Assembly: GCA_002780205.1 (NCBI GenBank)
Contig: PEVQ01000190.1
Location: forward strand, 1 to 31,423
Source of the DNA: Elusimicrobia bacterium CG06_land_8_20_14_3_00_38_11
GTDB lineage: Bacteria; Elusimicrobiota; UBA8919
DNA length: 31,423 bases
Direction of reading: 5' to 3'
Both the position numbers and the translations under genes were made by a program. Shown here piece by piece: positions 2,235 to 23,221 of the stretch. The notes beneath the pieces were generated by a model. It did no database searches, had not been told where the DNA came from, and was given only the letters and a program-made list of their open reading frames with translations. Every line of letters starts with the position of its first letter. Position 1 is the first letter of the stretch.

Positions 2235-2322
2235 GGAGAGGTGGCCGAGCGGCTGAAGGCGCGGGTCTCGAAAACCCGTATATCGCTTTGCGGTATCGAG
2301 AGTTCAAATCTCTCCCTCTCCG
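2235..2322 (+). tRNA. tRNA-Ser (anticodon CGA), 3' CCA not encoded
   Basis: Acceptor GGAGAGG/CCTCTCC with G discriminator; D arm GCC/GGC; anticodon arm CGGGT-CTCGAAA-ACCCG; long variable arm TATCGC-TTT-GCGGTA; T arm GAGAG-TTCAAAT-CTCTC. Confidence 0.97.
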
Positions 2323-2340: not shown

Positions 2341-3444
2341 ATGAGAAAAATTTTAATCTGTGTAATCTGTGTTTTCAATCTATGTAATCTGTGTTTTGCA
2401 AAAAAAGAAGGAACTGTTATTTTAGATTCGCTGCCCAAAGCGATTTCACCAAATAGAGACGGTTTATATGAAAAAACAAGATTTATTATTTCCGCGGATG
2501 CAGGTAAAATCAAAAAGTGGACAATTGAAATAAAAAACGATATTGGCGTTCCCGTAAAAACTTTTACCGGCGTTGATGCTATTCCCGTTGCTCTTGAGTG
2601 GGACGGCACTGATGAAAAAGGCACAGTGGCGCCCGACGGCAAATATGTTTGTGTGATGACTATTGACGGCAAATATCCCGCCCGTTCAAATGAATTATGG
2701 ATTAATGTGGACACGATGGAACCGTTCGCCGGAATTTCTGTCTCAACGAACGGAATTACTCCGAATAATGATGGCAGAGATGATTTTGTTGACATTTCGT
2801 TTATTGCCGAAGACCCCGTAGGTTTTTCTCTCTGGCAGATATCAATTGAAAATTCTAAAGGTATTGAAGTAATATCCAGAAAAGGTAACAATGATATTCT
2901 GAAAAGTTTCAGGTGGGACGGCAAAGACGATTATTACAAAAATGTCGTTCCCGATGGTAAATATAAAATAAAATTCAGCGTGCTTGATGCGGTCGGCAAC
3001 AAAACAGAGGCAGAGCCGGTTGAAATAGATGTTAGCGTTCAGAAAAAAATTATTCCCGAAGTAAAAAATATTTCCGTTAAAGAGGAAAAAAGGGGGCTGG
3101 TCGTTAATCTTGCCTCTGCGGTACTTTTTGATTCTGGCAAGTCGGAATTAAAACCCGCCTCTTATTCGGTTATGAACGAAGTGGTAAAACTTATGCAGGA
3201 TTACCCGGAAAATAAAATTTTGATTGAAGGTCACACGGACAGTTATGGAAGCAATGCATATAATAAAAAATTATCCGAAAAACGGGCACAGGCGGTTAGC
3301 AATGTTCTTGTTTCAAAATACGCGGTGGACTCAAAACGGCTGAAAGTGGTGGGCTACGGCGAGGAGAAACCGCTTGCGGATAACAAAACTGCCGTCGGAA
3401 GAGAACAAAACAGAAGAGTGGAAATTATAATACTTAAAAAATGA
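2341..3444 (+). CDS. Exported OmpA-family protein with two FlgD/Ig-like (SPNxDG...WDG) domains
   Basis: GGAGG RBS and a signal peptide. Repeated ISPNRDG/ITPNNDGRDD and WDGTD..PDGKY/WDGKD..PDGKY motifs. OmpA C-terminal domain LFDSGKSELK...IEGHTDSYG...LSEKRA...NRRVEI. Confidence 0.9.
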   Translation: MRKILICVICVFNLCNLCFAKKEGTVILDSLPKAISPNRDGLYEKTRFIISADAGKIKKWTIEIKNDIGVPVKTFTGVDAIPVALEWDGTDEKGTVAPDGKYVCVMTIDGKYPARSNELWINVDTMEPFAGISVSTNGITPNNDGRDDFVDISFIAEDPVGFSLWQISIENSKGIEVISRKGNNDILKSFRWDGKDDYYKNVVPDGKYKIKFSVLDAVGNKTEAEPVEIDVSVQKKIIPEVKNISVKEEKRGLVVNLASAVLFDSGKSELKPASYSVMNEVVKLMQDYPENKILIEGHTDSYGSNAYNKKLSEKRAQAVSNVLVSKYAVDSKRLKVVGYGEEKPLADNKTAVGREQNRRVEIIILKK

Positions 3445-3538
3445 TGCGAGGGCATATCAGGATTTCAATCCTGATGCTTATGCCCGAAGCATCACACAAT
3501 AATGGTAGCCCACCCTTCAGGGTGGGTGAGCGAAGCGA
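3442..3538 (+). repeat. Structured intergenic element, copy A (double hairpin with TGAGCGAAGCGA tail)
   Basis: TCAGGAT-TTCA-ATCCTGA inside an outer stem (TGATGC/GCATCA, GGGCATA/TATGCCC), then CAATAATG, GTAG-CCCACCC-TTCA-GGGTGGG and TGAGCGAAGCGA. Confidence 0.85.
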
Positions 3539-3544
3539 AGAATA

Positions 3545-4366
3545 ATGACCGGATTAAAAAAAATAATTTTGTCAATTTTCATAATAATAATTTCTCTGAT
3601 AATTATTTTCACAGTCGTAGAAAAATTCGTTTTTCCGTCAAAACTTTTGAAAAATTATGTACAGGGAAGAATCTCATATATTTCCGGAGCAACAACCGAA
3701 TTAAAAGACATATCGGTCGGTTTAAGCGGGATTAAACTGATTAATATTGTTATTTTTCTGCCGGATGTATTTGAATTAAAAATTGAAAAAACAATAATTT
3801 CTCCCAATTTATTTCCGTTTCCGAGAAAGCAGGTTGCTTTTAACGAAATAAAAATAGTAAAACCGAAAATTAAACTTTGGAAAGGGTTCAGAAATTTCAA
3901 ACTGAAAAAAAATGTTTTACATGCCGGCCACACATTAGTTCTAAGCAGATTAAAAATTGAAGACGGGAGTTTTTATTACGGCGGACTTGAAATTCTTGGC
4001 ATTCAAGTTGATATAAAAAATGCATCAATTATCGGCATATTCCCGATAGAAATATATTTTGATATGGAAGGTGTCGGAGCAAAAATTTCTGCTGAATATG
4101 ATTTCAAAAAACAGTATCTTAAAATAAATAACGCAGCCATTAAAAGCGATAAAAAAAATGTAATAATTTCAGGTGGTATTGAAAAACCCATGAATCTGGA
4201 TGAGGCGGAGTTTGATGTCGTTGTAAAAGGCAGCGGAGAATTGTTTAATAAATTTTTTCTGTCAAATATCCGGCATAAAAAGAAAATTATCATTTTTGAT
4301 AAAGAAAATATAGAACTAAAAATTCACGGAAATCTTAACTCATTTCAAGTAGTAAATTTGCAATAA
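3545..4366 (+). CDS. Hypothetical protein with N-terminal membrane anchor, AsmA-like
   Basis: One N-terminal TM helix followed by a beta-rich region resembling AsmA N-termini (ISVGLSGIKLINI...EIKIVKPKI...RLKIEDGSF). The family call is tentative. Confidence 0.5.
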   Translation: MTGLKKIILSIFIIIISLIIIFTVVEKFVFPSKLLKNYVQGRISYISGATTELKDISVGLSGIKLINIVIFLPDVFELKIEKTIISPNLFPFPRKQVAFNEIKIVKPKIKLWKGFRNFKLKKNVLHAGHTLVLSRLKIEDGSFYYGGLEILGIQVDIKNASIIGIFPIEIYFDMEGVGAKISAEYDFKKQYLKINNAAIKSDKKNVIISGGIEKPMNLDEAEFDVVVKGSGELFNKFFLSNIRHKKKIIIFDKENIELKIHGNLNSFQVVNLQ

Positions 4367-4370
4367 AAAA

Positions 4371-4465
4371 GAATTTGTGAAATGGCGGGTTTCAACCCGC
4401 CGCCAATGGAACAAATTCGAACCAATAATGTGGCCCCCGAATTTATTCGGGGGTGAGCGAAGCGA
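4371..4465 (+). repeat. Structured intergenic element, copy B (95 nt)
   Basis: GAATTTGT/ACAAATTC outer stem, GGCGGGT-TTCA-ACCCGCC, CAATAATG, GTGG-CCCCCGAA-TTTA-TTCGGGGG and TGAGCGAAGCGA. It is gap-free colinear with copy C (79/95 identical by hand count). Confidence 0.9.
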
Positions 4466-4482
4466 AATGGAGGTGATGTAAA

Positions 4483-4704
4483 ATGATGGCAGTAATTGGT
4501 GGTATTGTTGCGGTCTTAATCGGTATTGTTTTGCTGTTTGGCGGTCCGCTTTTTGGTCTTCCTGTTTATATGTGGGATGACTTCCTTGTTTGTCTTAAAG
4601 GGACTATTTCTTCTGGACTTGTGCTCGGTGGAATTCTCGCAGTTATAGCCGGTGTTTCGGCAATCAAGGACAGGGCAAAAGCGAAATCAGAGGAAAATAA
4701 ATAA
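4483..4704 (+). CDS. Small membrane protein, 73 aa, two hydrophobic segments
   Basis: Strong GGAGGT RBS, two Gly-rich hydrophobic stretches and a charged tail. Its stop abuts the thiL start. Confidence 0.75.
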   Translation: MMAVIGGIVAVLIGIVLLFGGPLFGLPVYMWDDFLVCLKGTISSGLVLGGILAVIAGVSAIKDRAKAKSEENK

Positions 4705-5676
4705 TTGAAAATATCTCAACTTGGCGAGTTTGGTTTAATAGAAAGAATAAGAGAGAAAAACAAAAAAGCGGTTCATCATTCCGGGACGGTTGTCGGTATA
4801 GGCGACGATTGTGCTGTCGTGAAATGCCGAAATGAAAACTTGCTTTTTACGACGGACACACTTGTAGAAAATGTCCATTTTTCAAAAAAATATTACAGTT
4901 TTTTTGATATTGGATATAAATCGCTTGCCGTTAACCTTTCCGATATCGCTGCGATGGGGGGTATGCCGCTTTACGCTCTTGTAACCGCCGGTTTTCCTGC
5001 CGAAACAAAAGTTAAAGACGCAGATGAAATTTATCGCGCAATTCGTAAACTTGCTACCGAGTTTAATGTTGAAATTATAGGAGGAGATACCGTTAAGTCC
5101 CCGGCTGCTTTAATAATTTCAATTACACTTATAGGAAAAACAATTTTCGGTTCCGGTATAAAAAGAAGCGGAGCGGTCGCTGGTGATTTAATTTTCACGA
5201 CCGGCAATTTCGGTGACTCTTCGGCAGGACTTTACTTATTACAAAAAGGTATTTCGGACTATAAAGAACTTAAAAAAAAGCATCTGAATCCCTACCCGCG
5301 AATTAAAGAAGGATTTTTTATCGCAAAATCCGGTTTTGCAACTTCAATGATTGATTCTTCCGACGGGTTTGATAAGTCAGTCCGTTTTATCTGTCAGGAA
5401 TCAAAAGTTGGTTGCAAAATTTATCTTGACAAAATTCCCGTTTCTGATGAGTTTAAATCTTTCGCTTCCGACTTCCGACTTCCGACTTCCGACTTTATTT
5501 TATTCGGTGGCGAAGAATATGAACTTATATTTACCGTCCCGCCCGGTAAAAAATCATATTTTGAAAAAAGATTTTATGAAGTAGGAAAAATTACAAAAGA
5601 CAAAAAAATTATCTATCTGAACTCAAACAATAAAAAAGTCAATTTGAAAAATAACGGCTATGACCATTTCAAGTAA
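4705..5676 (+). CDS. thiL: Thiamine-monophosphate kinase
   Basis: GEFGLIE, GIGDDCAVV, TTDTLVENVHF, KSLAVNLSDIAAMGG, IIGGDT, MIDSSDG and GGEEYELIFT motifs; TTG start. Confidence 0.95.
   Translation: MKISQLGEFGLIERIREKNKKAVHHSGTVVGIGDDCAVVKCRNENLLFTTDTLVENVHFSKKYYSFFDIGYKSLAVNLSDIAAMGGMPLYALVTAGFPAETKVKDADEIYRAIRKLATEFNVEIIGGDTVKSPAALIISITLIGKTIFGSGIKRSGAVAGDLIFTTGNFGDSSAGLYLLQKGISDYKELKKKHLNPYPRIKEGFFIAKSGFATSMIDSSDGFDKSVRFICQESKVGCKIYLDKIPVSDEFKSFASDFRLPTSDFILFGGEEYELIFTVPPGKKSYFEKRFYEVGKITKDKKIIYLNSNNKKVNLKNNGYDHFK
5465..5495 (+). repeat. Heptamer tandem repeat (CTTCCGA)x4.4 inside thiL
   Basis: CTTCCGA four times plus CTT, translated as ASDFRLPTSDF. Confidence 0.9.
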
Positions 5677-7309
5677 AACCGAACAAATGTTCGGTTTTGG
5701 AAAAATCAAAAATATGTTCCGTCTAAAGCAATTTGAAAAAACTGAAAACCGAACAAATGTTCGCCCGAACAAATGTTCGGAGATTGCGTTTCTCTGTGTT
5801 GTTACTATTATCCTTTTAGTTCCGTTTTACAACAAGGCAATTTCTTCCGATGCGATATTTTATATCTATACGGCAAGACAGATTCTAAAAGAGCCGCTTA
5901 AACCGTTTGATTTCCAGATAAACTGTGCAGAAAAAAATTATTTCGGATGGGATGTTGCCAATAATCCGCCATTGGTCTCATACCTCATTGCCGGTATCAT
6001 AAAAATTTTTGGCGAAAATGAAAAAATACTGCATCTTGTTTTTCTTGGTTTTGCCGTATTTACCATTATGGGAATGTATTTTCTATCCGATGAGTTAAAA
6101 ATAAATCCGTTTTTTTCCACACTTCTTTTAATAGCCAGCCCGGCATTTTTTGTGAATGCTACCGATATTATGCTTGATATTCCGATGCTCGCATTTTCAC
6201 TGTGGGGTATCTATTTTGTAATTAACGAAAAATTTATCGGATGGATTTTACTCGGTTTGGCGGTTCTTATAAAATTTGTAGCGATTATAAATTTACCGGT
6301 TGTTTTTGCATGGTTTTTACTTAATAAAAAACTAAAAAAAAATCTTATATTTTTTTTGATTCCGATTTTATTTTTAATTGCCTGGTCAACGCATAATAAA
6401 TTAGTTTATGATGAAATTCAAATTCTGAAAAAATCTCTTTCGGTGGGGTTGTTTTTCGGACCGGTAAAAGAAATTCCGCTTTTAACCTACCTCGGAGGCG
6501 CTTTTATTTTTCCTTTGAGTATTTTATGGATTAGTTTCAAATACAATAAAGTTTATATTTGGTTTTTTATAATTTTATTTTCAGTTGCAAATCTTTTTTT
6601 TAACTTACTTGGTAATTCTAATCTTAAAAATTTGTTTTTCGGAGTTTTTATATCTTCGTCAGTTATGCTTATTTTTATTTTTGCAGAGCATCTTAGAAAA
6701 ACAAATTTCCAAAACGAAACTTTTTTTCTTGTAATGTGGTTTTTTCTATATTTTCTTTTTTTTGCATCCGTTTCGGCGATAATTGCGGTAAGATATCTTT
6801 TACCTCTTTTGCCACCGGTAATAATGCTATTAGTAAAAATATCGCAAGATTTATCAACCAGAAAAGTTTTTTTGACAATAACGATTACAGCAGGAATTAT
6901 CCTGTCGTTATTTCTTACACATTCCGATTATATGCTTGCCGGTTCATACAGGGATATTGCGGAATATATCAAAAATAATTATGCGGGGCAAAATGTTTAT
7001 TTTACAGGACATCTTGGCTTCCAATACTATATGGAGAAAAACGGTTTTTTAGCAGTTGATTCAAACGATAAAATATATCCGAAAAATTCGATTTTAGTTA
7101 ATCCGATTTTTCCTGTCACGCAAAAAATTCATAAAGATGTCTTTAAAAAATTAAAATTCATAGAAGAAAAATATGTATTTACAAAAAATCCTTTTAGAAC
7201 AATGAACCCCTGGGTAAATGCGGGATTTCACTTAAATATGTATGGGCTTTTGCCTTATTCCTTTTCAAGCGACCCGTTAGAAGCATTTATAATTTACAAA
7301 GTTAAATGA
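5660..7309 (+). CDS. GT-C fold glycosyltransferase (ArnT/PMT, GT39/GT83-like)
   Basis: Multi-pass membrane protein with SSDAIFYIYTARQI, NNPPLVSYLIA, MLDIPMLAFSLWG, LAVLIKF and AVRYLLPLLPP. The start codon is uncertain (5660, 5687 or 5714). Confidence 0.75.
   Translation: MTISSKTEQMFGFGKIKNMFRLKQFEKTENRTNVRPNKCSEIAFLCVVTIILLVPFYNKAISSDAIFYIYTARQILKEPLKPFDFQINCAEKNYFGWDVANNPPLVSYLIAGIIKIFGENEKILHLVFLGFAVFTIMGMYFLSDELKINPFFSTLLLIASPAFFVNATDIMLDIPMLAFSLWGIYFVINEKFIGWILLGLAVLIKFVAIINLPVVFAWFLLNKKLKKNLIFFLIPILFLIAWSTHNKLVYDEIQILKKSLSVGLFFGPVKEIPLLTYLGGAFIFPLSILWISFKYNKVYIWFFIILFSVANLFFNLLGNSNLKNLFFGVFISSSVMLIFIFAEHLRKTNFQNETFFLVMWFFLYFLFFASVSAIIAVRYLLPLLPPVIMLLVKISQDLSTRKVFLTITITAGIILSLFLTHSDYMLAGSYRDIAEYIKNNYAGQNVYFTGHLGFQYYMEKNGFLAVDSNDKIYPKNSILVNPIFPVTQKIHKDVFKKLKFIEEKYVFTKNPFRTMNPWVNAGFHLNMYGLLPYSFSSDPLEAFIIYKVK
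5675..5780. repeat. Three copies of the palindrome CGAAC-AAAT-GTTCG (matches the Gram-positive-type LexA box consensus)
   Basis: Exact copies at 5680-5693, 5750-5763 and 5766-5779. The first extends to a 10-bp inverted repeat AAAACCGAAC/GTTCGGTTTT (5675-5698). Confidence 0.8.
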
Positions 7310-9303
7310 TGAAAAAATATCTCAAATTATTTTTTATAAGTTTTGCGGCACTTTTTTTAGAAATTGTATGCATCAGATGGTTCAACTCCAATGTCGTTAT
7401 GCTTTCTTATTTTTCCAACTTTGTCTTGCTTGCATGTTTTTTGGGTTTGGGTATCGGGATGCTTCTTGTATCCAAAAAGACGGATTTCATAGTTTTATTT
7501 CCTTCATTTTTTTTAATTTTGTGTGTTATATTCTGGAAAGTTATAATCAGATTGACGGTTAATTCCGATGTAAGCGTATATTTTACTGCTTCGGGTTTTG
7601 CCAAAGGAGTGCCGTTGTATAATGCGAATGCATGGTGGTTTCTTCCGATTATTTTTATACTTGCAACCGTAATGTTTATTTCTGTCGGGCAAGAGGTCGG
7701 CAGGGCATTTTCCGGCATTAAACCGCTTGTTGCTTACATAATAAATATCTGCGGAGCAATTTTTGGCGTCGGTTTATTTACGGCGATTTCATTTTCTAAC
7801 AGTTCGCCTCTTGTATGGTTTGTGATTATTTTTTTGTGTCTGTTCCCTTATCTATACGGGAAACGGTTTTTTTATTTCAATGTTCTTGCGTTTGTATTAT
7901 CATTTTTTTTCTTATGGATGATAAGTCATGGTGCAATTTTTTCACCTTATTATAGAATTGATGTAATCAACAATTGTGTAATAGTCAACGGGATTCCTCA
8001 TCAGACAATGCTTAATATAGATAAAGAGTTTGTCAATGGCTATGAGTTTCCGTATAAACTTATAAAAAAACCAAAAAAGGTTTTGATACTCGGTGCCGGT
8101 ACCGGAAATGACGTGGCAGTTGCATTAAAAACCGGCGCTGAAAAAATAGATGCTGTTGAAATAGACCCTGTGATTATTGAAATAGGAAATCGGCACCCGA
8201 ATAAACCATATCAAAATAAAAAAGTAAAAATTTTTAATGATGACGCCCGTGCTTTTCTTAAAAAATCAGACGAAAAATACGATTTGATAATTTTTGCCCT
8301 GATTGATTCGCTGACGGTATTTTCGCAATTCTCGTCGGTGCGTCTTGAAAATTTTATTTTTACAAAGGATGCTTTTGAGGATGTAAAAAGGCATTTAACC
8401 GGCGATGGCGTTGTTATTATATATAATCAGTTCAGAAAAATCTGGCTCGTTGAGCGCTTGTCAAAAATGCTTGAAGAAACTTTCGGCAAAAAAACAATTA
8501 TCTACAATGAACAGGAAAAAGAGCACTTCGCTGTGCTGTTTAATGGCCCCGGGATTGAAAAAATAAATTTTCCCCCAAAAGCGGAATTATTCCCCAAGCA
8601 AAAAGCCCCGTTGTTTTTAACATCAAATTACCATATTAAATCAACCACCGACAACTGGCCGTTTCTGTATCTTAAAAATCCGACAATCCCGGTACATTAT
8701 GTTCTATCTCTTTTTATGATATTATTTTTTGCTGCCTTACTTGTTTTCATATCGTCGGATATTTCTTACGGTATAAACAACCATTTCTTTTTTCTCGGCA
8801 CGGGTTTTATGATTTTGGAAACATCTGCAATTATAAGATTTGCAATACTTTTCGGTTCAACCTGGATTGTCAATTCAATAGTCATAATTGCGATACTTGT
8901 TATGGCATTTTTTGCGACATACTTTACTAGCAGATTTTCTCCGGATAACAATAAAAAGTATTATATTTATCTTTTTCTGATTATTACAGCAAACATTCTG
9001 ATTCCTTTGAAAATATTTTTAATTTTTCCTTTTTATGTGAAAGTTGTTTTATCATCGCTCCTTTTATTTTTACCGATATATTTTTCGGGAGTAATTTTTG
9101 CCACATCATTTTCTAAATCGGAAAACCCGTCTTCATCTTTAGGCTCAAATTTAATCGGTTCAATGTTCGGCGGCTGTTTGGAATACATCTCGCTAAAATA
9201 CGGTTACGGTTCGTTGATGATTCTCTTGCTGGGGGTATATCTTGTTTCAATCAAAAACTTTAAGTGGAGATTTAGTTTCAAAAAGTCCTTTGGGAACATT
9301 TAA
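7306..9303 (+). CDS. Membrane-embedded class I SAM-dependent transferase (spermidine-synthase-like domain between two TM bundles)
   Basis: N- and C-terminal TM blocks flank VLILGAGTGNDVAVAL, VEIDP, DDARAFL, YDLIIFAL and TTDNWPFLY. It overlaps the upstream stop (ATGA). Confidence 0.75.
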   Translation: MMKKYLKLFFISFAALFLEIVCIRWFNSNVVMLSYFSNFVLLACFLGLGIGMLLVSKKTDFIVLFPSFFLILCVIFWKVIIRLTVNSDVSVYFTASGFAKGVPLYNANAWWFLPIIFILATVMFISVGQEVGRAFSGIKPLVAYIINICGAIFGVGLFTAISFSNSSPLVWFVIIFLCLFPYLYGKRFFYFNVLAFVLSFFFLWMISHGAIFSPYYRIDVINNCVIVNGIPHQTMLNIDKEFVNGYEFPYKLIKKPKKVLILGAGTGNDVAVALKTGAEKIDAVEIDPVIIEIGNRHPNKPYQNKKVKIFNDDARAFLKKSDEKYDLIIFALIDSLTVFSQFSSVRLENFIFTKDAFEDVKRHLTGDGVVIIYNQFRKIWLVERLSKMLEETFGKKTIIYNEQEKEHFAVLFNGPGIEKINFPPKAELFPKQKAPLFLTSNYHIKSTTDNWPFLYLKNPTIPVHYVLSLFMILFFAALLVFISSDISYGINNHFFFLGTGFMILETSAIIRFAILFGSTWIVNSIVIIAILVMAFFATYFTSRFSPDNNKKYYIYLFLIITANILIPLKIFLIFPFYVKVVLSSLLLFLPIYFSGVIFATSFSKSENPSSSLGSNLIGSMFGGCLEYISLKYGYGSLMILLLGVYLVSIKNFKWRFSFKKSFGNI

Positions 9304-9685
9304 TTTTGGTAGAAAAATAGCAGAAATAGTAAAATGTGGTTCTGTTATCTGTCTTTATGGAACACTCGGCGCTGGAAAAACGGTTATTGTGCAGGGGATA
9401 TGTAAGGGGCTTAAAGTAAAGGGTTTTGTAAACAGCCCTTCGTTCAAAATTGTGAACGAATACAGAGGAAAATTTCCGGTTTATCATATTGATTTATATC
9501 GTTTGAATTCCGCGAGCGAAATAAATGATTTGGGCCTTGACGAATATATTTACGGTGATGGGATTACAATTATTGAGTGGGCAGGAAAATTAGGCAAAAA
9601 AAATTTGCCGAAAAAAAGAATTGAAATTTACATAAAAATTAAAAATGAAAATGAGAGAGAAATAAAATGGCAGCGATATCAATAG
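9242..9685 (+). CDS. tsaE: tRNA threonylcarbamoyladenosine biosynthesis ATPase TsaE
   Basis: Walker A GTLGAGKT, VNSPSFKIVNEY, YHIDLYRL and IIEWA. The start is uncertain and overlaps the upstream gene. Confidence 0.93.
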   Translation: MFQSKTLSGDLVSKSPLGTFNFGRKIAEIVKCGSVICLYGTLGAGKTVIVQGICKGLKVKGFVNSPSFKIVNEYRGKFPVYHIDLYRLNSASEINDLGLDEYIYGDGITIIEWAGKLGKKNLPKKRIEIYIKIKNENEREIKWQRYQ

Positions 9686-11577
9686 TTTTAGTATTGGTTA
9701 TTATTATTATCTACTGGAAAACAGTTTTTCTTTTTGGACTTTTTTCCGCACATTTTCCAGAGATAAATGATATTATCGCTATGTATTTCCCGTTCAGAAG
9801 TTTTTTTGCCGACTCAATAAGGAATGGAATGTTCCCTCTCTGGAGTTCTGATATTTTTCTAGGATTTCCTTTACATGCAGAAAGCCAGGGTGGCTTTTTT
9901 TATCCTCCGAACATTCTCTTTGCGATATTACCGCCCGGGGCTGCTTACAACTTTGTATTTGTTTTGCACAGTTTTCTTTCAGGATTTTTTACGTATCTTT
10001 TTGCAAGAGCTATTAAATTGAAAAAATCAGCAAGTATTCTTGCATCAATAGTTTTTGCTTTTTCTGGTTTTTCTGCCGTTCACAATGAGCACATGAATCT
10101 ATTAAATGCGATAAGTTGGATACCGCTTGTTTTTCTTTTCGTTAATAAAATTTCACAAAAAAAATTGTGGTTAATTCTTAGTTTGATCTTTGCAAATCAG
10201 TTTCTATCGGGTTTTCCTCAAGTTCTATACTATTCTGCAATTGTTGGATTTATATACCTTATTTTCTTATCAAAAGATCTAAAACTAATTTTAAGATTTT
10301 TCCTCGCCATCGGTTTTGCATTTTTAATTTCTTTTTGTCAAGTTTTACCTACCGTTGAACTAATACCTTATTCTCACCGGGCTTACGGTGTGGTGAAGGA
10401 AGAAATGTTTGCATGGGGCTATTACATAAAAGATCTTTTGTTTTTCATAATGCCTTATATTTTTGGTAATCCTGCTATGGGCACATATACAAGAAAGGAT
10501 AGTTTGTTCGGTGAAAACTGTGCTTATGTGGGAGTTATAACAATACTGATTGCTTTCATTTATATACTCAAAAATTTTAAAAAAGAAAAAGAAACAAGAT
10601 TTTTTTCTCTCCTTTTGCTTTTTCTAATATTTGTTGTCCTAAGTTTTCCATATTTGCATTATCTATATTTCAAAATAATGCCTGGATTTAAGTATTTCAG
10701 AATACCGCAACGTCTACTTATTTTTGTTGTATTTTCACTGGCAATACTATCAGCAAAAGGACTAGAAATTTTTCCAAAGATTAAGTTTTTAGTTATAACG
10801 GCAGTCCTTGCTGAACTTTTGAATTTTTCTTCCGGATATAACAAGGTCATCGATTGGCAGTTTTTTTCCAAACCAGAAATTGTAAAAATATTAGAAAGCG
10901 ATAAAGAATTATTCAGAGTTTATACTTATGACAAGAGTGCTATCGCTTGGATAAGAGCATATTGTTTTTCAAAGATTCCTGGATTTGCTGAAATCACTCA
11001 ATACAGTTTCCGAAATTATCTTTATCCAAATACGAATATGTTATATCACATACCATCCTTAAATGCATATACCCCGTTTGTTCATCTGAATGAATTTGAA
11101 CATTTTGATATAGCAAATGTAAAATATGTGATTTCATCGTCAGATTTGATTAAGAAAAAAGATTTTTTGCTTGTTAAAAAAATAAACTTTCCAGTTCCAT
11201 TACCAGAGTTAAAAATATATCAAAATATCAATTTTTTACCTCGAGCATTCATAACGAAGAAAGAAAAATCTATTATAAAAAACATTTTACCAGTTAAGGT
11301 GCTGGATTATCAAACTACAAAAGTAAAAATAATAAAGAAGGAAAAGGATGAGGGAGAACTTATTCTCTGCGATTTTTATTACCCCGGGTGGAATGTTTTT
11401 GTAGATGGTAAGAAGAGAGAAATCTCCAATTTCCAATCTGTAAGAAGGGTTACTGTTTTCCAAAATGAAAAAAAAATCTTTTTTGTTTATAGACCGCTGT
11501 GCTTCTTTTCAGGGGTCATAATATCAATAATTTCAATTTTTATTTTGGGTGTTTTAGTATATAGAGTTGAAACTTAA
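9667..11577 (+). CDS. YfhO-like multi-pass membrane glycosyltransferase (GT-C)
   Basis: PLWSSDIFLGFPLHAESQGGFFYPPN, SGFPQV..Y, QVLPTVEL...S.R and the YfhO-like C-terminus LILCDFYYPGWNVFVDG. Confidence 0.75.
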   Translation: MAAISIVLVLVIIIIYWKTVFLFGLFSAHFPEINDIIAMYFPFRSFFADSIRNGMFPLWSSDIFLGFPLHAESQGGFFYPPNILFAILPPGAAYNFVFVLHSFLSGFFTYLFARAIKLKKSASILASIVFAFSGFSAVHNEHMNLLNAISWIPLVFLFVNKISQKKLWLILSLIFANQFLSGFPQVLYYSAIVGFIYLIFLSKDLKLILRFFLAIGFAFLISFCQVLPTVELIPYSHRAYGVVKEEMFAWGYYIKDLLFFIMPYIFGNPAMGTYTRKDSLFGENCAYVGVITILIAFIYILKNFKKEKETRFFSLLLLFLIFVVLSFPYLHYLYFKIMPGFKYFRIPQRLLIFVVFSLAILSAKGLEIFPKIKFLVITAVLAELLNFSSGYNKVIDWQFFSKPEIVKILESDKELFRVYTYDKSAIAWIRAYCFSKIPGFAEITQYSFRNYLYPNTNMLYHIPSLNAYTPFVHLNEFEHFDIANVKYVISSSDLIKKKDFLLVKKINFPVPLPELKIYQNINFLPRAFITKKEKSIIKNILPVKVLDYQTTKVKIIKKEKDEGELILCDFYYPGWNVFVDGKKREISNFQSVRRVTVFQNEKKIFFVYRPLCFFSGVIISIISIFILGVLVYRVET

Positions 11578-11587
11578 AAAGTAGAAG

Positions 11588-12250
11588 ATGAAAATACTTG
11601 CTATTGAAACATCGGGTAACATTTGCGGCGCCGCTGTAATAAGCGGCGATAAAATTATTGCCGAAAAGAATATTTTTTTGCCGAAAAATTCGTCATCCAA
11701 AATTTTTGATGTTATAAAAAATATCACAAGGGAAAATTTACAGTTTAATGTTATAGCGGTTGATGTGGGACCAGGTTCTTTCACCGGCATAAGAGTTGGT
11801 GTTTCGCTGGCTCGGGCTTACGGACAATTTCTGAGATTACCCATTATCGGTGTTTCGTGTCTGGATTGTTTGGTTTTCGACGCCTTAAAAAATAAAAATG
11901 TTTTTGGGAAAATTTTTCCGGTAGTAGATGCTCTTCGCGGTGAAGTTTACACGGCAGAGTATGAAGGGCTAAAAAGAAAAACTAAAATAAAAATAATTGA
12001 GGTTGCAAAATTCTTAAAAATGTTGGATAATAAGTCAACGGTTGCAGGAAGTTATGAAATTTGCCGCTCAATACCGGATAATAGAAAATGTGTTGTTGTG
12101 AAATTATCCGCTTCCGCCGTCGGTTTTATGGCATCAAAGAAATTGGAAAGATGTGAGAAGCACAATTATAATGAAGTTCTGCCTTTGTACATAAGGAGGG
12201 CTTTTGCCCAAGAGCATTATTCCGGTCGTAAATCGACAAAAAGATACTAA
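11588..12250 (+). CDS. tsaB: tRNA t6A biosynthesis protein TsaB
   Basis: MKILAIETS, IAVDVGPGSFTGIRVGVS, VDALRGEVY and C-terminal PLYIR. Confidence 0.92.
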   Translation: MKILAIETSGNICGAAVISGDKIIAEKNIFLPKNSSSKIFDVIKNITRENLQFNVIAVDVGPGSFTGIRVGVSLARAYGQFLRLPIIGVSCLDCLVFDALKNKNVFGKIFPVVDALRGEVYTAEYEGLKRKTKIKIIEVAKFLKMLDNKSTVAGSYEICRSIPDNRKCVVVKLSASAVGFMASKKLERCEKHNYNEVLPLYIRRAFAQEHYSGRKSTKRY

Positions 12251-12683
12251 AATTGAAATTCGCCGGGTGCGGATTGATGACATAAGTGCAATTGCCGAAA
12301 TTGAAAAAAAATCATATCCGGAGCCGTGGTCGCAAAATTTGTTTGAAAGGGAATTACAGATTAAATTCTCAAATTTTTTTGCAGCGATAAAAGACTGTGA
12401 AATAATCGGTTATGTCTGCTTTTGGACGGTTTCCGACGAAGGACAAATTACGAACATTACCGTTAAGGAAAAATTCAGAAGAAAAGGTATTGGTTCAAGA
12501 CTTATGAAATATATTATGGATATATCTTACGCGAAAAAAATAAAAAAAATGTTTTTGGAAGTAAGAGCACAAAATTACCCGGCATCAAAATTTTATGAGA
12601 AATTCGGATTCAAAAAAATAGGATTGAGAAAAAAATACTATTCAAATACCGACGATGCCGTAGTTATGGCAAAAACTTTATGA
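12204..12683 (+). CDS. rimI: Ribosomal-protein-alanine N-acetyltransferase (GNAT)
   Basis: IEKKSYPEPWS, ITNITVKEKFRRKGIG, FLEVRAQN, FYEKFGF and RKKYY..DDAVVM. TTG start 4 nt after AAGGAGG. Confidence 0.9.
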   Translation: MPKSIIPVVNRQKDTKIEIRRVRIDDISAIAEIEKKSYPEPWSQNLFERELQIKFSNFFAAIKDCEIIGYVCFWTVSDEGQITNITVKEKFRRKGIGSRLMKYIMDISYAKKIKKMFLEVRAQNYPASKFYEKFGFKKIGLRKKYYSNTDDAVVMAKTL

Positions 12684-14815
12684 AAAAATATTATTTATTT
12701 TTTTTACTTCTCACTTCTCACTTCTCACTTCTTACTACCGTTTCCGCTTCCCAATCCGACGCTTACTATCATTATTTATTGGGCAACATTGCCCAGATGA
12801 AAGGTGAATATCCTCAAGCAATAGAGGAATATAAAAAATCAACTTTATACGATAGCGGCTCAGTTTATCTGAAAAAACAATTGGTCAATCTGTATATTTT
12901 AACCGGTGACACGAATGCGGCTTCGGAGGTTCTTTCTGAAATTTCCAAAGTCGCCCCCGCCGACCAATCAACAGCGGAACTTATGGCGGAATTATCAATT
13001 TACAATAAAAAACCCGAAGATGCAATTTCGGTATATGAAAAAATACTGTCAACGGAGCCGTCTAACGAACAGGCGATTTACAATCTGGGAGTGTTATATT
13101 CCGAAACAGGTAAATATGAGAAGGCGATTTTATATTTTGAAAAATTTTTGCAGATCGCTCCGGATTCACCAGATGTTTATGTCAGTATAGGAATTTTATA
13201 CAATAAACTTGAACGCCCGGTTGAAGCGGAATTATATCTGAAGAAGGCTGCTGAAATAGACGGTAATTCAGTCGTTGGGCTGTTTGCCCTTGCAGGTATC
13301 TACGAAGAAAAAAAGGACTACGGCAAAGCGATTGAGTTATATGATAAACTGCTCGAAATATTGCCGGATGATGCGGAACTTACGATGAAAATTGCAGGAC
13401 TTTATATTCTACAAAAGGATTATGTGTCGGCAAAAAAATATCTTACAGGAGCAAAAGAAAAGTTTCCGAAAAATCACTGGATTGACTATTATCTCGGGCT
13501 TTTGTCTCTTGAAGAAAAGGACTATGAAACAGCACTCAAATATTTTGACAAATCAATCTCCATAAATAAAAAATCCCCTGAGCCGCATATACAAAAGGGC
13601 TATGTTTTTACGATTCAACAGAACACAAAAGAAGCGGTAAAATCTTTTAAAAAATCGTTGTCGCTTGGTGCTGAAATTTCCGATGTGGATTTTTTTCTTG
13701 CAATGAATTATGAGGTTTTAGGCAAGTATAAGAAATCAGAAAGTTATCTGAAAAAAGCAGTTGCACTTGAACCGCAAAATTCCAAATACCGTTTTGAACT
13801 GGGGATTGTTTATGATAAATTAAAAAAACAGGAATTAGCGGAAAAAGAGTTTTTTAGCGTTATAGAAATTGATTCAAATTCTGCGGTGGGATGTAATTAT
13901 CTCGGCTATACTTATGCGGACAAAAACATAAAACTTAAAGAAGCGGAAGAACTTATAAAAAAGGCGCTGGAAATAGAGCCGGAAAATCCCGCATATATTG
14001 ATTCGCTCGGCTGGGTTTTTTACCGTCAAAAAAAATATGATGAAGCGTTGACATTACTTAAAAAAGCGTCTGAAAAATTAGATGATGCTGTGATTTTTGA
14101 CCATCTCGGCGACTGTTATTTATCTGTCGGAGATATTGAAAAAGCAGTTGATAGTTGGGAGATATCTTTTTCCCTTGAAAAAAACAAAGCGGTCAAAAAA
14201 AAGATAAAAAAGTACCGCAGAAACTTGAATTGGACAAAAGATATGATAAAGTTACGGGCACTGAGAAGTTTTAAGGGGATACAGGACATTTCCGGTTTTG
14301 TCAGTGCAAACACCGTCTATAAAAACGAGGGATACGGAGCGAACGGGCCATTTTTTTTCAAGAAACCGAAACAATTGCGATTTGAAATTTTAGGGCTGTT
14401 CTCAGTTCCGCAGGGACTTATTTTGATGCGGCAGGGAACGGTCGTTTATGTTACGCCAGACAAAAAGCAATACAATCTTACCGACGATTTTTTTTGGGTT
14501 AAGGACATTTTCAGTATTTTTGATGCTGAATGTTTTGACGGGCTTGATAATGTTTCAGAGAAAGAAAATTTCTATATCTTTAAAAATGATTTTGTAGAAG
14601 TAAAAGTTGATAAAAAAGAACACACAGTTTCCGAGATAAAATTTGCCAACGGTTCCGGTATTAGTCCGTCTGATTATAAACTGCTGGAAAAAATAAAATT
14701 TCCGCACAAATTGGATTTTATAAGTTCCGGCGGAGATATAAGAACAACCTTGATTCTCAAAAAACTCAATCTCAATAAAAACATAAAAATAGATTTATTT
14801 AATCTGCCTGAATGA
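12680..14815 (+). CDS. Exported multi-TPR protein with a roughly 190-aa C-terminal LolA/LolB-like beta domain
   Basis: Signal peptide and many TPRs ending in NYLGYTYAD...ALEIEPENPAYIDSLGWVFY...DHLGD. The C-terminal part has FFFKKPKQLRFEILGLF. Confidence 0.8.
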   Translation: MKKYYLFFLLLTSHFSLLTTVSASQSDAYYHYLLGNIAQMKGEYPQAIEEYKKSTLYDSGSVYLKKQLVNLYILTGDTNAASEVLSEISKVAPADQSTAELMAELSIYNKKPEDAISVYEKILSTEPSNEQAIYNLGVLYSETGKYEKAILYFEKFLQIAPDSPDVYVSIGILYNKLERPVEAELYLKKAAEIDGNSVVGLFALAGIYEEKKDYGKAIELYDKLLEILPDDAELTMKIAGLYILQKDYVSAKKYLTGAKEKFPKNHWIDYYLGLLSLEEKDYETALKYFDKSISINKKSPEPHIQKGYVFTIQQNTKEAVKSFKKSLSLGAEISDVDFFLAMNYEVLGKYKKSESYLKKAVALEPQNSKYRFELGIVYDKLKKQELAEKEFFSVIEIDSNSAVGCNYLGYTYADKNIKLKEAEELIKKALEIEPENPAYIDSLGWVFYRQKKYDEALTLLKKASEKLDDAVIFDHLGDCYLSVGDIEKAVDSWEISFSLEKNKAVKKKIKKYRRNLNWTKDMIKLRALRSFKGIQDISGFVSANTVYKNEGYGANGPFFFKKPKQLRFEILGLFSVPQGLILMRQGTVVYVTPDKKQYNLTDDFFWVKDIFSIFDAECFDGLDNVSEKENFYIFKNDFVEVKVDKKEHTVSEIKFANGSGISPSDYKLLEKIKFPHKLDFISSGGDIRTTLILKKLNLNKNIKIDLFNLPE
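12706..12736 (+). repeat. Heptamer tandem repeat (ACTTCTC)x3 + ACTTCTT + ACT in a signal peptide
   Basis: Read directly; it encodes LLTSHFSLLT. Confidence 0.85.
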
Positions 14816-14822
14816 TAAAAAA

Positions 14823-16070
14823 ATGATTAAGCGATTTTTAATTTTAACCTTTCACTTTTTACTTTTAACTTTCATCAACGCTTCTGACTTAACGGTTACA
14901 TTCATAAATGTCGGGCAGGTCGGCGATTCAATTTTAATTCAGACACCGTTAAATAAAAACATACTTATTGACGGCGGTTTGTGGTATGCGGGTGAAAAAA
15001 ATATAGCCCCCGTTCTTAGAAATAAAAATATAGAAAAAATTGACACCGTAATTCTTACCCATCCTCACGGCGACCATTACGGCGGACTGGAATATATTCT
15101 TAAAAACTTTAAGGTAGTGGAGGTTTTAACTGATGGAATTGTTTCACCGGTTGAGCCCTATCAGGATTTTCTATTAGAAGTGAAAAAAAGCGGTGCGGCA
15201 TATAAAATAGTTGCCGTCGGTGAAAAATACGATTGGGGCGGCTGCGAAGCGACCGTATTAAACTCAAAAAACGAGATTTTATACAGCACCGAAGCATACA
15301 ATAATCATTCCGTAGTAATAAAACTTACACACGGTAAAAATTCGTTTCTTTTTACCGGCGATATAGAAAAAGAAGCCGAAAATTTTTTGCAAAGTAATTA
15401 TGACATAAAATCTACCGTCTTAAAAATCCCGCATCACGGAAGCAGTTCGTCGTCAACTTATAAATTTCTGAAAAAGGTAGCACCCAAAATTGCCGTGCTT
15501 ACCGTCGGTTATCCCAATGATTATGGTCTGCCTGTTTTATCAACGCTTGAAAAATACAAGCAACTCAATATTAAATTGTACAGAACAGATATTGACGGTA
15601 ACATTGAAATAATTTCAGACGGTAAAGCGATAAAAATTAACATGGAAAAAAAATCGGATATAAACAGGTATTCAGCATCCGTCAGTACATTTTCAACAAA
15701 TTACGATGACTTTTGGATGTATATGGATAATGGTTGGTTTTTAGTGAGGGATAAAAAATTTGAAGAAGCGGTTGTTGAACTGAAGAGAGCCGTCGTGATA
15801 AATCCTAATTCGGCAGATGCCCACTCCAAACTCGGCTATGCTTACAAAAAAATAAATAATTCTGTGCTTGCCGAAACAGAATTTTTGAAAGCAATTTCTC
15901 TCAACGCTCAAGAGTATTATGCACGGATACATCTCGGATTGATGTATTACTTTGATGATAAATCCGACGCGGCGGTTACACTTTTTAAAAAAGCACTTGA
16001 AGTTGAACCGCAAGGAAGATACACTGATTTATTGAAGGAAAAAATAGAAGAAATAGAACAAAGAAAATGA
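14823..16070 (+). CDS. Exported ComEC/Rec2-type metallo-beta-lactamase-fold hydrolase with C-terminal TPRs
   Basis: TFINVGQVGDS, ILIDGG, LTHPHGDHYGG, FLFTGDIE, LKIPHHGS and LYRTD..GNI, followed by three to four TPRs. There is no membrane Competence domain. Confidence 0.85.
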   Translation: MIKRFLILTFHFLLLTFINASDLTVTFINVGQVGDSILIQTPLNKNILIDGGLWYAGEKNIAPVLRNKNIEKIDTVILTHPHGDHYGGLEYILKNFKVVEVLTDGIVSPVEPYQDFLLEVKKSGAAYKIVAVGEKYDWGGCEATVLNSKNEILYSTEAYNNHSVVIKLTHGKNSFLFTGDIEKEAENFLQSNYDIKSTVLKIPHHGSSSSSTYKFLKKVAPKIAVLTVGYPNDYGLPVLSTLEKYKQLNIKLYRTDIDGNIEIISDGKAIKINMEKKSDINRYSASVSTFSTNYDDFWMYMDNGWFLVRDKKFEEAVVELKRAVVINPNSADAHSKLGYAYKKINNSVLAETEFLKAISLNAQEYYARIHLGLMYYFDDKSDAAVTLFKKALEVEPQGRYTDLLKEKIEEIEQRK

Positions 16071-16163
16071 ATTTGTGGAATGAGGGACTTCAGTCCCTCG
16101 TCAATGGAACAAATTCAAACCAATAATGTAGCCCCCGACTTTAGTCGGGGATGAGCAAAGCGA
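16069..16163 (+). repeat. Structured intergenic element, copy C (95 nt)
   Basis: GAATTTGT/ACAAATTC, GAGGGAC-TTCA-GTCCCTC, CAATAATG, GTAG-C-CCCCGAC-TTTA-GTCGGGG and TGAGCAAAGCGA. Confidence 0.9.
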
Positions 16164-16172
16164 GGGGAAATA

Positions 16173-22075: not shown

Positions 22076-22206
22076 AGCCACAGATTTTAACAGATGACAC
22101 GAAGTGTCACCCTGAGTGAAACGAAGGGTCTCGTCTTTAGCACCGAGATTCTTCGCCTTCGGCTCAGAATGACATTTCAGTGTTTATCCGTGTCCATCTG
22201 TGGCTA
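22076..22206. repeat. Nested palindrome: AGCCACAGAT/ATCTGTGGCT shell around a 70-nt TGTCA...TGACA REP-like module
   Basis: Outer arms at 22076-22085 and 22196-22205. The inner module (22105-22174) recurs at 22913-22983. Confidence 0.85.
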
Positions 22207-22229
22207 CGAAAGTTTTCTGGAGGAACAAA

Positions 22230-22727
22230 ATGGCAAGTGATTTTAGTTTTGACATAGTGTCGCAGGTTGACTTACAGGCGGTGGACGATGCGGTTAATAT
22301 TTCAATGAAAGAAATAATAAACAGGTTTGATTTGAAAGGGACCAATTCCACAATTGAATTTAACCGCGGCGAAAAAACGGTTATACTTTCTGCAAGTTCG
22401 GAGTTTCATCTCAAACAGATTAAAAATGTCCTGTCGTCAAAAATGGCAAAAAGAGGAGTAAGCCAGAAAGCATTGACGGTAAAAAAGACCGAGACAAATA
22501 TAAGCGGCGCTGTCCGGGAAACGGATAACATCGTCTGCGGAATAGAAAAAGAACTCGCAAAAAGCATTGTAAAAGATATAAAGACCCTAAACCTGAAAGT
22601 CCAATCGGCGATACAGGATGAGCAGATAAGGGTTTCAAGCAGAGACAAGGACGCCCTGCAGTCGGTCATCGGTTTTATAAAATCCAAGGACTACCCCGTC
22701 CCGCTGCAATTTATAAATTACAGATAA
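22230..22727 (+). CDS. yajQ: YajQ family nucleotide/c-di-GMP-binding protein
   Basis: SFDIVSQVDLQAVDDAVN...RFDLKG, VQSAIQDEQIRVSSRDKDALQ and PLQFINYR. GGAGG RBS supports ATG 22230. Confidence 0.93.
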   Translation: MASDFSFDIVSQVDLQAVDDAVNISMKEIINRFDLKGTNSTIEFNRGEKTVILSASSEFHLKQIKNVLSSKMAKRGVSQKALTVKKTETNISGAVRETDNIVCGIEKELAKSIVKDIKTLNLKVQSAIQDEQIRVSSRDKDALQSVIGFIKSKDYPVPLQFINYR

Positions 22728-22730
22728 AAA

Positions 22731-23221
22731 ATGAAAATTGAATACTACGATTTTGGAGAAGTTATTGTTGACAGTAAAGAATACACCGGCGATGTAATTA
22801 TTTATCCTAACAGGGTTCGAGCGAACTGGTGGAGAAAGGCAGGGCATTCATTGTGTATTGATGACTTACTACTCAGAGCGGAATATACTTTACATTGGTG
22901 AAGCACTTCGTCTGTCACCCTGAGTGGAACGAAGGGTCTCGCATTTTAACATCGAGATTCTTCGCCTTCGGCTCAGAATGACATCCTTTTCATGTAAAGT
23001 ATTTTATGCTCCCCTTAGTAAAAGATGTGATTTCGGAAAAACCGGAGATTATTATCGTAGGAACAGCTTTTGACGGTTGTATGAAAATTCCTCCTGAAAC
23101 AAAAAAATATATTGAAAGCCAAAACATAAAATTAATTATAGAAACCACAAAAAATGCAATTGAAATGCACAATGAACTTCAAATAAAACATATAATCACC
23201 TGTTTACATTTAACCTGCTAA
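22731..23221 (+). pseudogene. Mth938-like (DUF498-type) protein gene interrupted by a MITE
   Basis: 5' part MKIEYYDFGEVIVDSKEYTGDVIIYP..WWRKAGHSLCIDDL (22731-22868) and 3' part KDVISEKPEIIIVGT...CLHLTC (23021-23221). Removing 22869-23020 gives an intact 112-aa frame. Confidence 0.88.
22869..23018. mobile_element. 150-bp MITE with 27-bp imperfect TIRs and a TA target-site duplication
   Basis: Left CTACTCAGAGCGGAATATACTTTACAT against reverse-complemented right CTAAGGGGAGCATAAAATACTTTACAT (20/27). TA at 22867-22868 and 23019-23020. No coding capacity for a transposase. Confidence 0.85.

Follow-up and report, generated by a model that had tools for sequence, protein, structure and literature searches.

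Three times on the forward strand of contig PEVQ01000190.1, an element of about 95 nucleotides folds into a series of hairpins between two genes, and its loops and linkers stay fixed as its stems change. Does this pattern reflect a regulatory RNA, or a piece of DNA that has moved? The contig, analyzed here over 31,423 nucleotides (the window), comes from Elusimicrobia bacterium CG06_land_8_20_14_3_00_38_11 (assembly GCA_002780205.1), a groundwater bacterium of the Elusimicrobiota. The comparative and structural data suggest that the three copies are probably recent insertions of a mobile DNA element family that resembles the repetitive extragenic palindromes (REPs) of other bacteria. Whether a REP-associated tyrosine transposase (RAYT) moves them is a separate matter; we put this step forward tentatively, as possible rather than probable.

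Throughout, G000 denotes the genome that holds the window (1.54 Mb in 282 contigs, ~90% complete, ~37% G+C), and C followed by a number denotes one of its contigs. G001, G002, and G003 are the genomes of other species of the same genus, G008 represents another genus of the family, and G011 is a further relative included in the comparison.

The copies, A (3442-3538), B (4371-4465), and C (16069-16163), all lie on the + strand. In each, the upstream stop codon falls at or just before the element, and the next ATG follows after 6, 17, and 9 nt, respectively, as expected from the initial annotation of this DNA, which had described co-oriented copies running from a stop codon to 6-17 nt before a start. 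The parts follow a single order: a first hairpin; CAATAATG; GT(A/G)G; a second hairpin; and TGAGC(G/A)AAGCGA. A gap-free alignment of copies B and C shows 16 differences, and ten of these combine into five compensatory pairs, of which the first hairpin contains four and the second contains one. Copy A has the same order of parts and the same geometry with different stems. Alignment therefore confirms the description of the three copies given at the outset. The predicted folds are stronger than those of the copies' own shuffled sequences, with z = -6.1, -3.5, and -4.1 for A, B, and C. Membership in a known RNA family, which the annotation had left to a comparison with Rfam, finds no support: at the gathering score, Rfam 15 gives no match to the element and only a tRNA elsewhere in the window (2235-2322), and a search up to E 10 gives only a chance-level match on the opposite strand that overlaps copy B.

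Iterated nhmmer searches seeded from the window copies place these three in a much larger family. The annotation had correctly proposed a family with covarying stems, but its size was understated, as G000 contains ~88 members rather than three. They are assembled from three kinds of module (30 L1, 18 L2, and 80 S), arranged as 26 L1+S, 14 L2+S, 40 solo S, and a few lone L modules, for a total of 88. The L1 and L2 modules occupy the 5′ side and contain a short GC-rich hairpin with a TTYA loop within an outer stem, which is GAATTTGY/RCAAATTC in L1 and GATGC/GCATC in L2; the latter has an additional middle stem. The S module comprises TGTAG, a 7-8-bp hairpin with a TTYA loop, and a closing tail, TGAGCGAAGCGAA. 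Its tag is mostly (T)GTAG, with a few GTGG, GTAA, and GTAT variants. The ~80 S copies are spread over more than 60 contigs of the 1.5-Mb genome. The modules are combinatorial and recombine: the L1 of copy C is identical to L1 modules on C149 and C89, and all three are joined to different S hairpins. In these terms, the window copies are composed as follows.

3442 to 3541, + strand: copy A, an L2+S composite, entire inserted segment (~101 nt); sites empty in G002 and G003.
3443 to 3493, + strand: L2 module of copy A, from its fold and from the 18 L2 modules of the genome with varying complementary stems.
3443-3447 with 3489-3493: outer stem of this L2 module, GATGC/GCATC.
3450-3456 with 3479-3485: its middle stem, GGGCATA/TATGCCC.
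3457-3474: its inner hairpin, with a TTCA loop.
3505 to 3526, + strand: S module of copy A, with the GTAG tag (3505-3508) and the 7-bp hairpin CCCACCC-TTCA-GGGTGGG (3509-3526).
3527 to 3539, + strand: tail of copy A, TGAGCGAAGCGAA, a mini-hairpin with pairs G4-C10 and C5-G9 and a GNA loop, as judged from the tail variants.
4363 to 4468, + strand: copy B, an L1+S composite including its A-rich leader, entire insert (~105 nt); sites empty in G001, G002, and G003.
4371 to 4418, + strand: L1 module of copy B, with the outer stem GAATTTGT/ACAAATTC (4371-4378 with 4411-4418) and the inner hairpin (4384-4401).
4430 to 4466, + strand: S module of copy B, with the tag GTGG (4430-4433), an 8-bp hairpin (4434-4453), and the tail (4454-4466).
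16062 to 16165, + strand: copy C, an L1+S composite including its leader, entire insert (~104 nt); sites empty in G001 and G002.
16069 to 16116, + strand: L1 module of copy C, with the outer stem (16069-16076 with 16109-16116) and the inner hairpin (16082-16099).
16128 to 16164, + strand: S module of copy C, with GTAG (16128-16131), the hairpin (16133-16150), and the tail TGAGCAAAGCGAG (16152-16164).

Evidence for movement comes first from the orthologous sites in relatives. The annotation had pointed to presence or absence at these sites as informative, and the comparison finds A and B absent from all three congeners, G001, G002, and G003, and C absent from two. Site A in G002 and G003 reads AAAAAA followed directly by TAATGACC, with the stop and start codons overlapping, and the G000 insert lies between these two sequences. 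Site B in G001, G002, and G003 reads TTTGCA followed by GGGAGGTGATG, with no element. Site C is empty in G001 and G002, where ATAGAG is followed by GAGAAATAATG; in G003 the site is occupied, by an element in which the S hairpin has been exchanged and the outer stem of L1 carries two compensatory changes. At the empty sites, the stop and start codons overlap as TAATG at A and C and as ATGA at B. The apparent intergenic gap is therefore the insert itself, and the new TGA or TAA stop codon of the upstream gene is supplied by the element or by its A-rich leader. Each of the window copies is a lineage-specific insertion, made at a junction between genes where stop and start codons ancestrally overlapped.

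A gene for a fused protein resembling dihydropyrimidine dehydrogenase (DPD) extends this comparison to six genomes, in which four element sites are variously filled. One of these sites holds a solo S in G001, an L1+S composite in G000 and G003, and nothing in three genomes; another holds only the tail in a different genus. No target-site duplication accompanies the inserts: mean flank identity is 3.11, compared to 2.88 in shuffles (highest shuffle 3.19), and comparison of filled with empty sites gives the same result. The direct repeat AATAATG around S in copies A and C was considered as a target-site duplication and rejected, as it is not general across the family.

The second line of evidence is the chemistry of the stems. 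Across 20 L1+S copies, 97.5% of pair cells contain standard pairs, compared to 79% in shuffles, and 98 cells show a change on both sides, compared to 29.5 in shuffles, with none of 500 shuffles reaching 98. Shifting the partner columns abolishes the signal. The 8-bp outer stem of L1 switches from C-G (9 copies) to T-A (8 copies). Distinct stem arms number 24 in S, 12 in L1, and 13 in L2, and the loops are constant, either TTCA or TTTA. The annotation had taken this pattern for structure under selection, which fits in outline; the nature of the pairs points to DNA rather than RNA as the molecule concerned. The 117 hairpins together contain 873 pairs, of which 852 are Watson-Crick, 7 are G.T, 5 are A.C, and 9 are other combinations. 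Wobble pairs are thus rare and do not exceed A.C mismatches, which argues for a DNA palindrome rather than a selected RNA helix.

The tail is consistent with this interpretation. The 13-nt sequence TGAGC-GNA-GCGAA forms a third hairpin, and d(GCGNAGC) is an exceptionally stable DNA mini-hairpin. Its loop reads GAA in ~41 copies, GTA in 9, and GGA in 7; G and A are thus conserved on either side of a middle base that varies freely. The pair between tail positions 4 and 10 is preserved through replacement of G-C by A-T in 3 copies.

The third line of evidence is the placement of copies within genes. Initial calls based on open reading frames (ORFs) placed 37 copies within ORFs, so the intergenic location that the annotation had given as a trait of the element does not hold for the family. 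Read-through was judged by a codon-usage frame test, which identifies in-frame, stop-free passage through 18 copies in sense orientation, 15 of them flanked on either side by strong coding signal, and through 6 in antisense orientation, 4 of them with a strong signal. Every recognized intragenic copy keeps the frame and contains no stop codon. The hosts, assigned with Pfam, include DNA polymerase III alpha (dnaE), RNA polymerase beta (rpoB), DNA polymerase I (polA), and UvrA (uvrA), together with a GH57 glucanotransferase, a GlgE-like enzyme, and the DPD-like fused protein. The inserts add 13-33 codons; a sense solo S would add a segment such as CSPRIYSGVSEANS, and composites ~30 residues. Preservation of the frame suggests that these inserts are translated.

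In G000 the DPD-like gene contains two solo S and one L1+S in frame, measured as inserts of 39, 39, and 90 nt against orthologues that lack them, and the insertion points coincide with loops of variable length among orthologues. The gene itself (C83:8071-10770) encodes 899 residues, combining a PreT-like flavoprotein with a PreA/DHODH-like part that carries 4Fe-4S domains, and the fusion is conserved across the genus and in G008 and G011. The polA insert (C62:1894-2025) contains a tail, L2, and S, and in addition a four-fold tandem HPVA repeat from reiterated GTAGCCCACCC. Contigs from four independent groundwater sequencing runs span in-frame inserts without differences; in these contigs, neither empty-site alleles nor joints at the inserts were found. 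Among public RNA runs, none was found to contain this DNA.

Of the 51 copies that fall outside ORFs, 41 are flanked on both sides by ORFs of the element's own strand, and no copy is flanked by two ORFs that are both on the strand opposite to it. Overall, 82 of 88 copies are on the locally dominant coding strand, and the antisense copies are all on contigs where every gene lies on the other strand. Removal of antisense copies because they act as terminators (hairpin plus U-tract) was considered as a source of this bias and rejected: the hairpins have no terminator-like site on either strand.

The fourth line of evidence is the distribution across genomes, counted as exact matches to the S tail and the L1 core.

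G000 (own genome): S tail 30, L1 core 20.
G003 (same genus): S tail 24, L1 core 2.
G001 (same genus): S tail 13, L1 core 0.
G002 (same genus): S tail 0, L1 core 0.
G008 (another genus of the family): S tail 13, L1 core 5.
About 140 other genomes of the phylum: S tail ~0, L1 core at background level.

A cross-phylum scan for the exact S module, using one genome per prokaryote species, recovers two Elusimicrobia metagenome-assembled genomes (MAGs), where L1 and L2 occur too. Beyond this phylum, it recovers S within a longer repeat in Planctomycetota, as well as in Acidobacteria and in a single alphaproteobacterial MAG. This patchy, bursty, cross-phylum distribution is the signature of a mobile element and not of a conserved regulator.

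What kind of mobile element is this? Among the closest known systems are the GTAG-tagged REPs with their RAYTs (TnpA-REP enzymes), the subject of Di Nocera, De Gregorio and Rocco 2013 (PMC3733652), Nunvar 2010 (PMC2817692), and Bertels and Rainey 2011 (PMC3116915). The first of these sorts REPs into GTAG- and CGTC-tagged superfamilies with several families per genome; it also describes GTAG REPs that lie in frame within genes, frequently those of replication and repair, as well as RAYT genes with REPs on both sides and mobilization by RAYTs (PMC3733652). GTAG REPs share with S an unpaired 5′ GTAG at the foot of a GC-rich stem (6-9 bp in REPs; 7-8 bp in S) with a short loop (TTCA or TTTA in S). 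They also share with G000 the presence of dozens of dispersed copies, several stem classes per genome, and RAYT genes bracketed by GTAG hairpins, and with this family the in-frame copies notably in replication and repair genes, here dnaE, polA, and uvrA. Judged by sequence, the S module has the defining features of a GTAG REP.

Other features set the family apart. A conserved 13-nt mini-hairpin tail follows the REP, and about half of the copies carry an additional 5′ module, L1 or L2, whose hairpin lacks GTAG. REPINs and BIMEs are inverted or alternating pairs, whereas these copies run head-to-tail on one strand and 40 S are solo. Unlike in a REPtron, no RAYT flanked by the S class was found in G000, in its family, or in the S-holding genomes. 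The host phylum, Elusimicrobiota, is a further difference; the literature search returned no paper on the GAGCGAAGCGA motif and no description of Elusimicrobia repeats. The term undescribed, used in the annotation, therefore applies in part: S belongs to a published superfamily of GTAG REPs (PMC3733652), and the composite architecture appears unreported.

Further systems have some of these features. Palindromic elements of the IS200/IS605 type resemble this family in having subterminal hairpins, no target-site duplication, and a strand bias compatible with insertion into the lagging-strand template. Ends of that type are, however, absent from the family, no TnpB is present in G000, the Y1 genes are not flanked by the element, and no autonomous parent was found. 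Miniature inverted-repeat transposable elements (Correia/NEMIS, ERIC, Nezha) are likewise non-autonomous, ~100 nt in length, located at gene junctions, co-transcribed, and sometimes intragenic. In contrast to these, this family has no terminal inverted repeats at its ends and no target-site duplication; its inverted repeats are internal hairpins. The Rickettsia palindromic elements (RPEs), reportedly described by Ogata et al. in 2000 (see also PMC3733652), are 40-150-nt palindromic repeats that lie in frame in coding genes, including essential ones, and also between genes, adding short peptides to proteins while leaving the gene intact. The pattern that identifies an RPE, an insert within an ORF that keeps the frame and is lacking in orthologues, is also found here. 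The hosts differ, as this one is a free-living groundwater organism and those of RPEs are obligate intracellular; the present elements are modular with a GTAG tag, and no sequence relation is expected. The family is an unusual variant of known selfish DNA and not a new regulatory RNA.

We propose that the mobile form would be a hairpin of single-stranded DNA, handled by an HUH (Y1) enzyme of the RAYT type that acts in trans or by a comparable enzyme that processes single-stranded DNA. In IS200/IS605-type transposition of single-stranded DNA, one specific strand inserts into the lagging-strand template. Movement of this kind would explain why the copies are almost always in gene sense, which corresponds to the lagging-strand template. 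The perfectly complementary stems may result from exchange of whole hairpin cassettes between copies, together with hairpin-templated correction, rather than from selection on RNA. The surviving copies would be those that do not break genes: copies between a stop codon and the next ribosome-binding site, or copies in frame in tolerant protein loops.

The genes that could encode such an enzyme were sought directly. G000 contains five matches to Y1_Tnp (PF01797), two of which are RAYT-like ORFs (on C173 and C64) that have GTAG palindromes of other stem classes on both sides. The short RAYT class has relatives of 37-50% identity in G001, G003, and G008; in G002, which is free of S, the best match to it is 28% identical and of another class, and G011 gives no match. 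All four S-bearing genomes tested have the short RAYT class, and G002 and G011 lack it, a suggestive co-occurrence. A partner of the TnpB/IscB type was ruled out by the absence of PF07282 (TnpB) from G000. RAYT, TnpA, or TnpB genes flanked by copies, which the annotation had suggested looking for, were not found. The proposal of a non-autonomous element mobilized by an HUH enzyme agrees with the GTAG tag, the lack of target-site duplications, the filled and empty sites, and the presence of RAYT genes with GTAG hairpins, and disagrees with the lack of S-flanked RAYT, TnpA, or TnpB genes. Because RAYTs are present and none is flanked by S, the mobilizing enzyme is a matter of inference.

Several observations weigh against a RAYT-mobilized REP family. 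None of ~57 Y1 loci is flanked by S with its tail, in a set that covers the family, including the ~90%-complete G000, and S-holding Planctomycetota and Acidobacteria; each RAYT seen has its own hairpin class, and the co-occurrence of the short RAYT class with S comes from six related genomes. The L1 and L2 hairpins have no GTAG tag. The copies are head-to-tail in a single orientation, unlike the inverted pairs (REPINs, BIMEs) of RAYT systems, and the inserts carry variable A-rich leaders that the HUH cut-and-paste model does not predict. In an assembly of 282 contigs, the sense-strand bias is inseparable from a replication-strand bias. An added effect of the elements on operons at the RNA level, as a side effect, is possible.

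Some of these points fit better with mobile DNA that is not RAYT-driven, an unlikely alternative with a real chance of being correct. Here, the TGAGC-GNA-GCGAA mini-hairpin would be used by another enzyme acting on single-stranded DNA, or copies would spread chiefly through recombination and gene conversion, acting between copies and A-rich microhomologies. The same tail is found in G000 at the tip or the end of several repeat families that are otherwise unrelated, and on S-like repeats in four or five phyla, and one orthologous site holds the tail alone. Hairpins have been exchanged at fixed loci, modules occur in different combinations, the leaders of the inserts are variable and A-rich, and no RAYT is flanked by S. 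Set against this are the GTAG tag and hairpin geometry, which match those of RAYT substrates (PMC3733652), the presence of RAYT genes, and the finding of the short RAYT class together with S in the small set of genomes tested. No candidate for another mobilizing enzyme was identified, and TnpB is absent. In a specific form of this alternative, which we rate as rather unlikely, the tail would be the real handle of mobilization: an enzyme would paste S, L1, and L2 cassettes head-to-tail beside the tail on one strand, and the RAYTs would keep to their own REPtrons. The mini-hairpin tail closes S elements in Elusimicrobiota, Planctomycetota, and Acidobacteria.

A cis-acting RNA family, in which transcribed hairpins stabilize the upstream mRNA, define where the mRNA is processed, or adjust how the flanking genes are translated, and mobility is only their origin, is improbable. 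The arrangement of non-ORF copies between same-strand ORFs would suit such a role, as would their tight fit between stop codon and ribosome-binding site. Replacement of an overlapping stop and start by an insertion means that the coupling of the two genes must change, and REPs are reported to function as RNA elements in other bacteria (PMC3733652). Against this, the element matches nothing in Rfam even up to E 10; the stems show no excess of G.U over A.C (7 versus 5 of 873 pairs), unlike selected RNA helices; the tail loop obeys the GNA-triloop rule of DNA; and no terminator-like signal is present on either strand. In addition, orthologous sites are empty in congeners, one congener has zero copies, and copy numbers differ many-fold between species. 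Finally, 24 copies lie in frame within genes, six of them antisense. The regulatory RNA that the annotation had offered as its other reading is accordingly not retained: the missing Rfam match, the lack of G.U excess, the patchy lineage-specific copy numbers, and the empty orthologous sites all speak against it.

It is highly improbable that the copies within genes behave like mini-introns, either excised from the mRNA or skipped during translation, and hence stay untranslated. The sense excess inside genes (18 versus 6) and the presence of essential genes such as rpoB and dnaE among the hosts would favor such a process. However, frame preservation, the absence of stop codons, and insert lengths of 39 or 90 nt where measurable would be needless if the copies were excised, the six antisense copies are likewise in frame, and the insertion points fall in loops whose length varies among orthologues. 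In-frame, translated REP and RPE inserts are also documented in other bacteria (PMC3733652). An assembly or binning artefact that misjoined repeats into genes, suggested by the fragmented MAG with its many contigs ending in repeats, is scarcely credible, because independent contigs from four sequencing runs span the in-frame inserts without differences and orthologous filled sites occur in separately assembled genomes.

Several observations concern variants of the element. The S stem of copy A is the commonest in G000, with 15 copies. Nested and extended forms are also present: the hairpin GTAGCCGACCC...GGGTCGG lies nested in the loop of another S hairpin on C71, C98, C108, C144, C181, C197, C222, and C11; this form recurs with the same sequence on at least these eight contigs and therefore spreads as a nested unit. 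Another variant of S has a tail interrupted by an additional hairpin, TGAGC-CCCGCATCGCAGTGCGGGG-TAAACTCC-GCGAATAG, and occurs on C29, C44, C86, C90, C120, and C241; this form is also found in frame in UvrA and a GH57 enzyme. Copy C contains a weak sigma-70-like match (TCGTCA, 18 nt, AATAAT; 9/12) at 16098-16127, built from the conserved 3′ part of L1 and the CAATAATG linker, which would face the downstream gene. A promoter carried by the element was rejected, as the sigma-70-like matches of the region (62) barely exceed the 49 expected from shuffles and the match in copy C is at chance level in an AT-rich region.

Other repeats occur in the same genome. In a second family, TGAGCGAAGCGAA is the tip of a longer hairpin, GTCATTC-TGAGCGAAGCGA-AGAATCTC or GTCATGT...AAACATC, on C13, C36, C40, C55, C87, C89, C97, C112, C135, C218, and C221 (compare window 22076-23018); only the mini-hairpin is shared with the 95-nt element. 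Stretches rich in the repeated words TTATTCGTG, CACAGATAA, and CTTAATCCTT, on C118, C146 (1380-1520), C263, C271, C253, C77, C36, C61, C130, C213, and C259, end in or bracket the GAGCGAAGCG motif, which they have in common with the element. G000 also contains many further classes of GTAG-tagged hairpin. Some form dense arrays (GTAGCGTCC..GGACG; GTAGCGTTGGG-TTTTAA-CCCAACG) on C238, C266, C273, C168, and C174; these run in both orientations and are BIME-like, unlike the single-strand S family. A ~42-nt sequence (GTGAATTAAAGAGATTAATTCTTTAA then CTTTCAGTGAAGTTCT) is located at ~10 contig ends (C6, C33, C46, C63, C98, C99, C119, C173, C202, and C258); it probably represents the end of an insertion sequence with multiple copies, or some other repeat at which the assembly breaks.

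For the organism, these data mean that what appear to be short operon spacers in G000, and the segments of 13-33 residues in RpoB, DnaE, PolA, UvrA, and metabolic enzymes, consist of repeat DNA that was inserted after the species diverged. More generally, covariation with fixed loops and linkers is not proof of an RNA, as mobile DNA palindromes can produce the same pattern; purely Watson-Crick pairs, GNA triloops, and empty orthologous sites are the signs of the latter. The family represents a natural case of head-to-tail, strand-specific modular REPs with a mini-hairpin tail common to several phyla, and as such could help define what the mobilizing enzyme recognizes.

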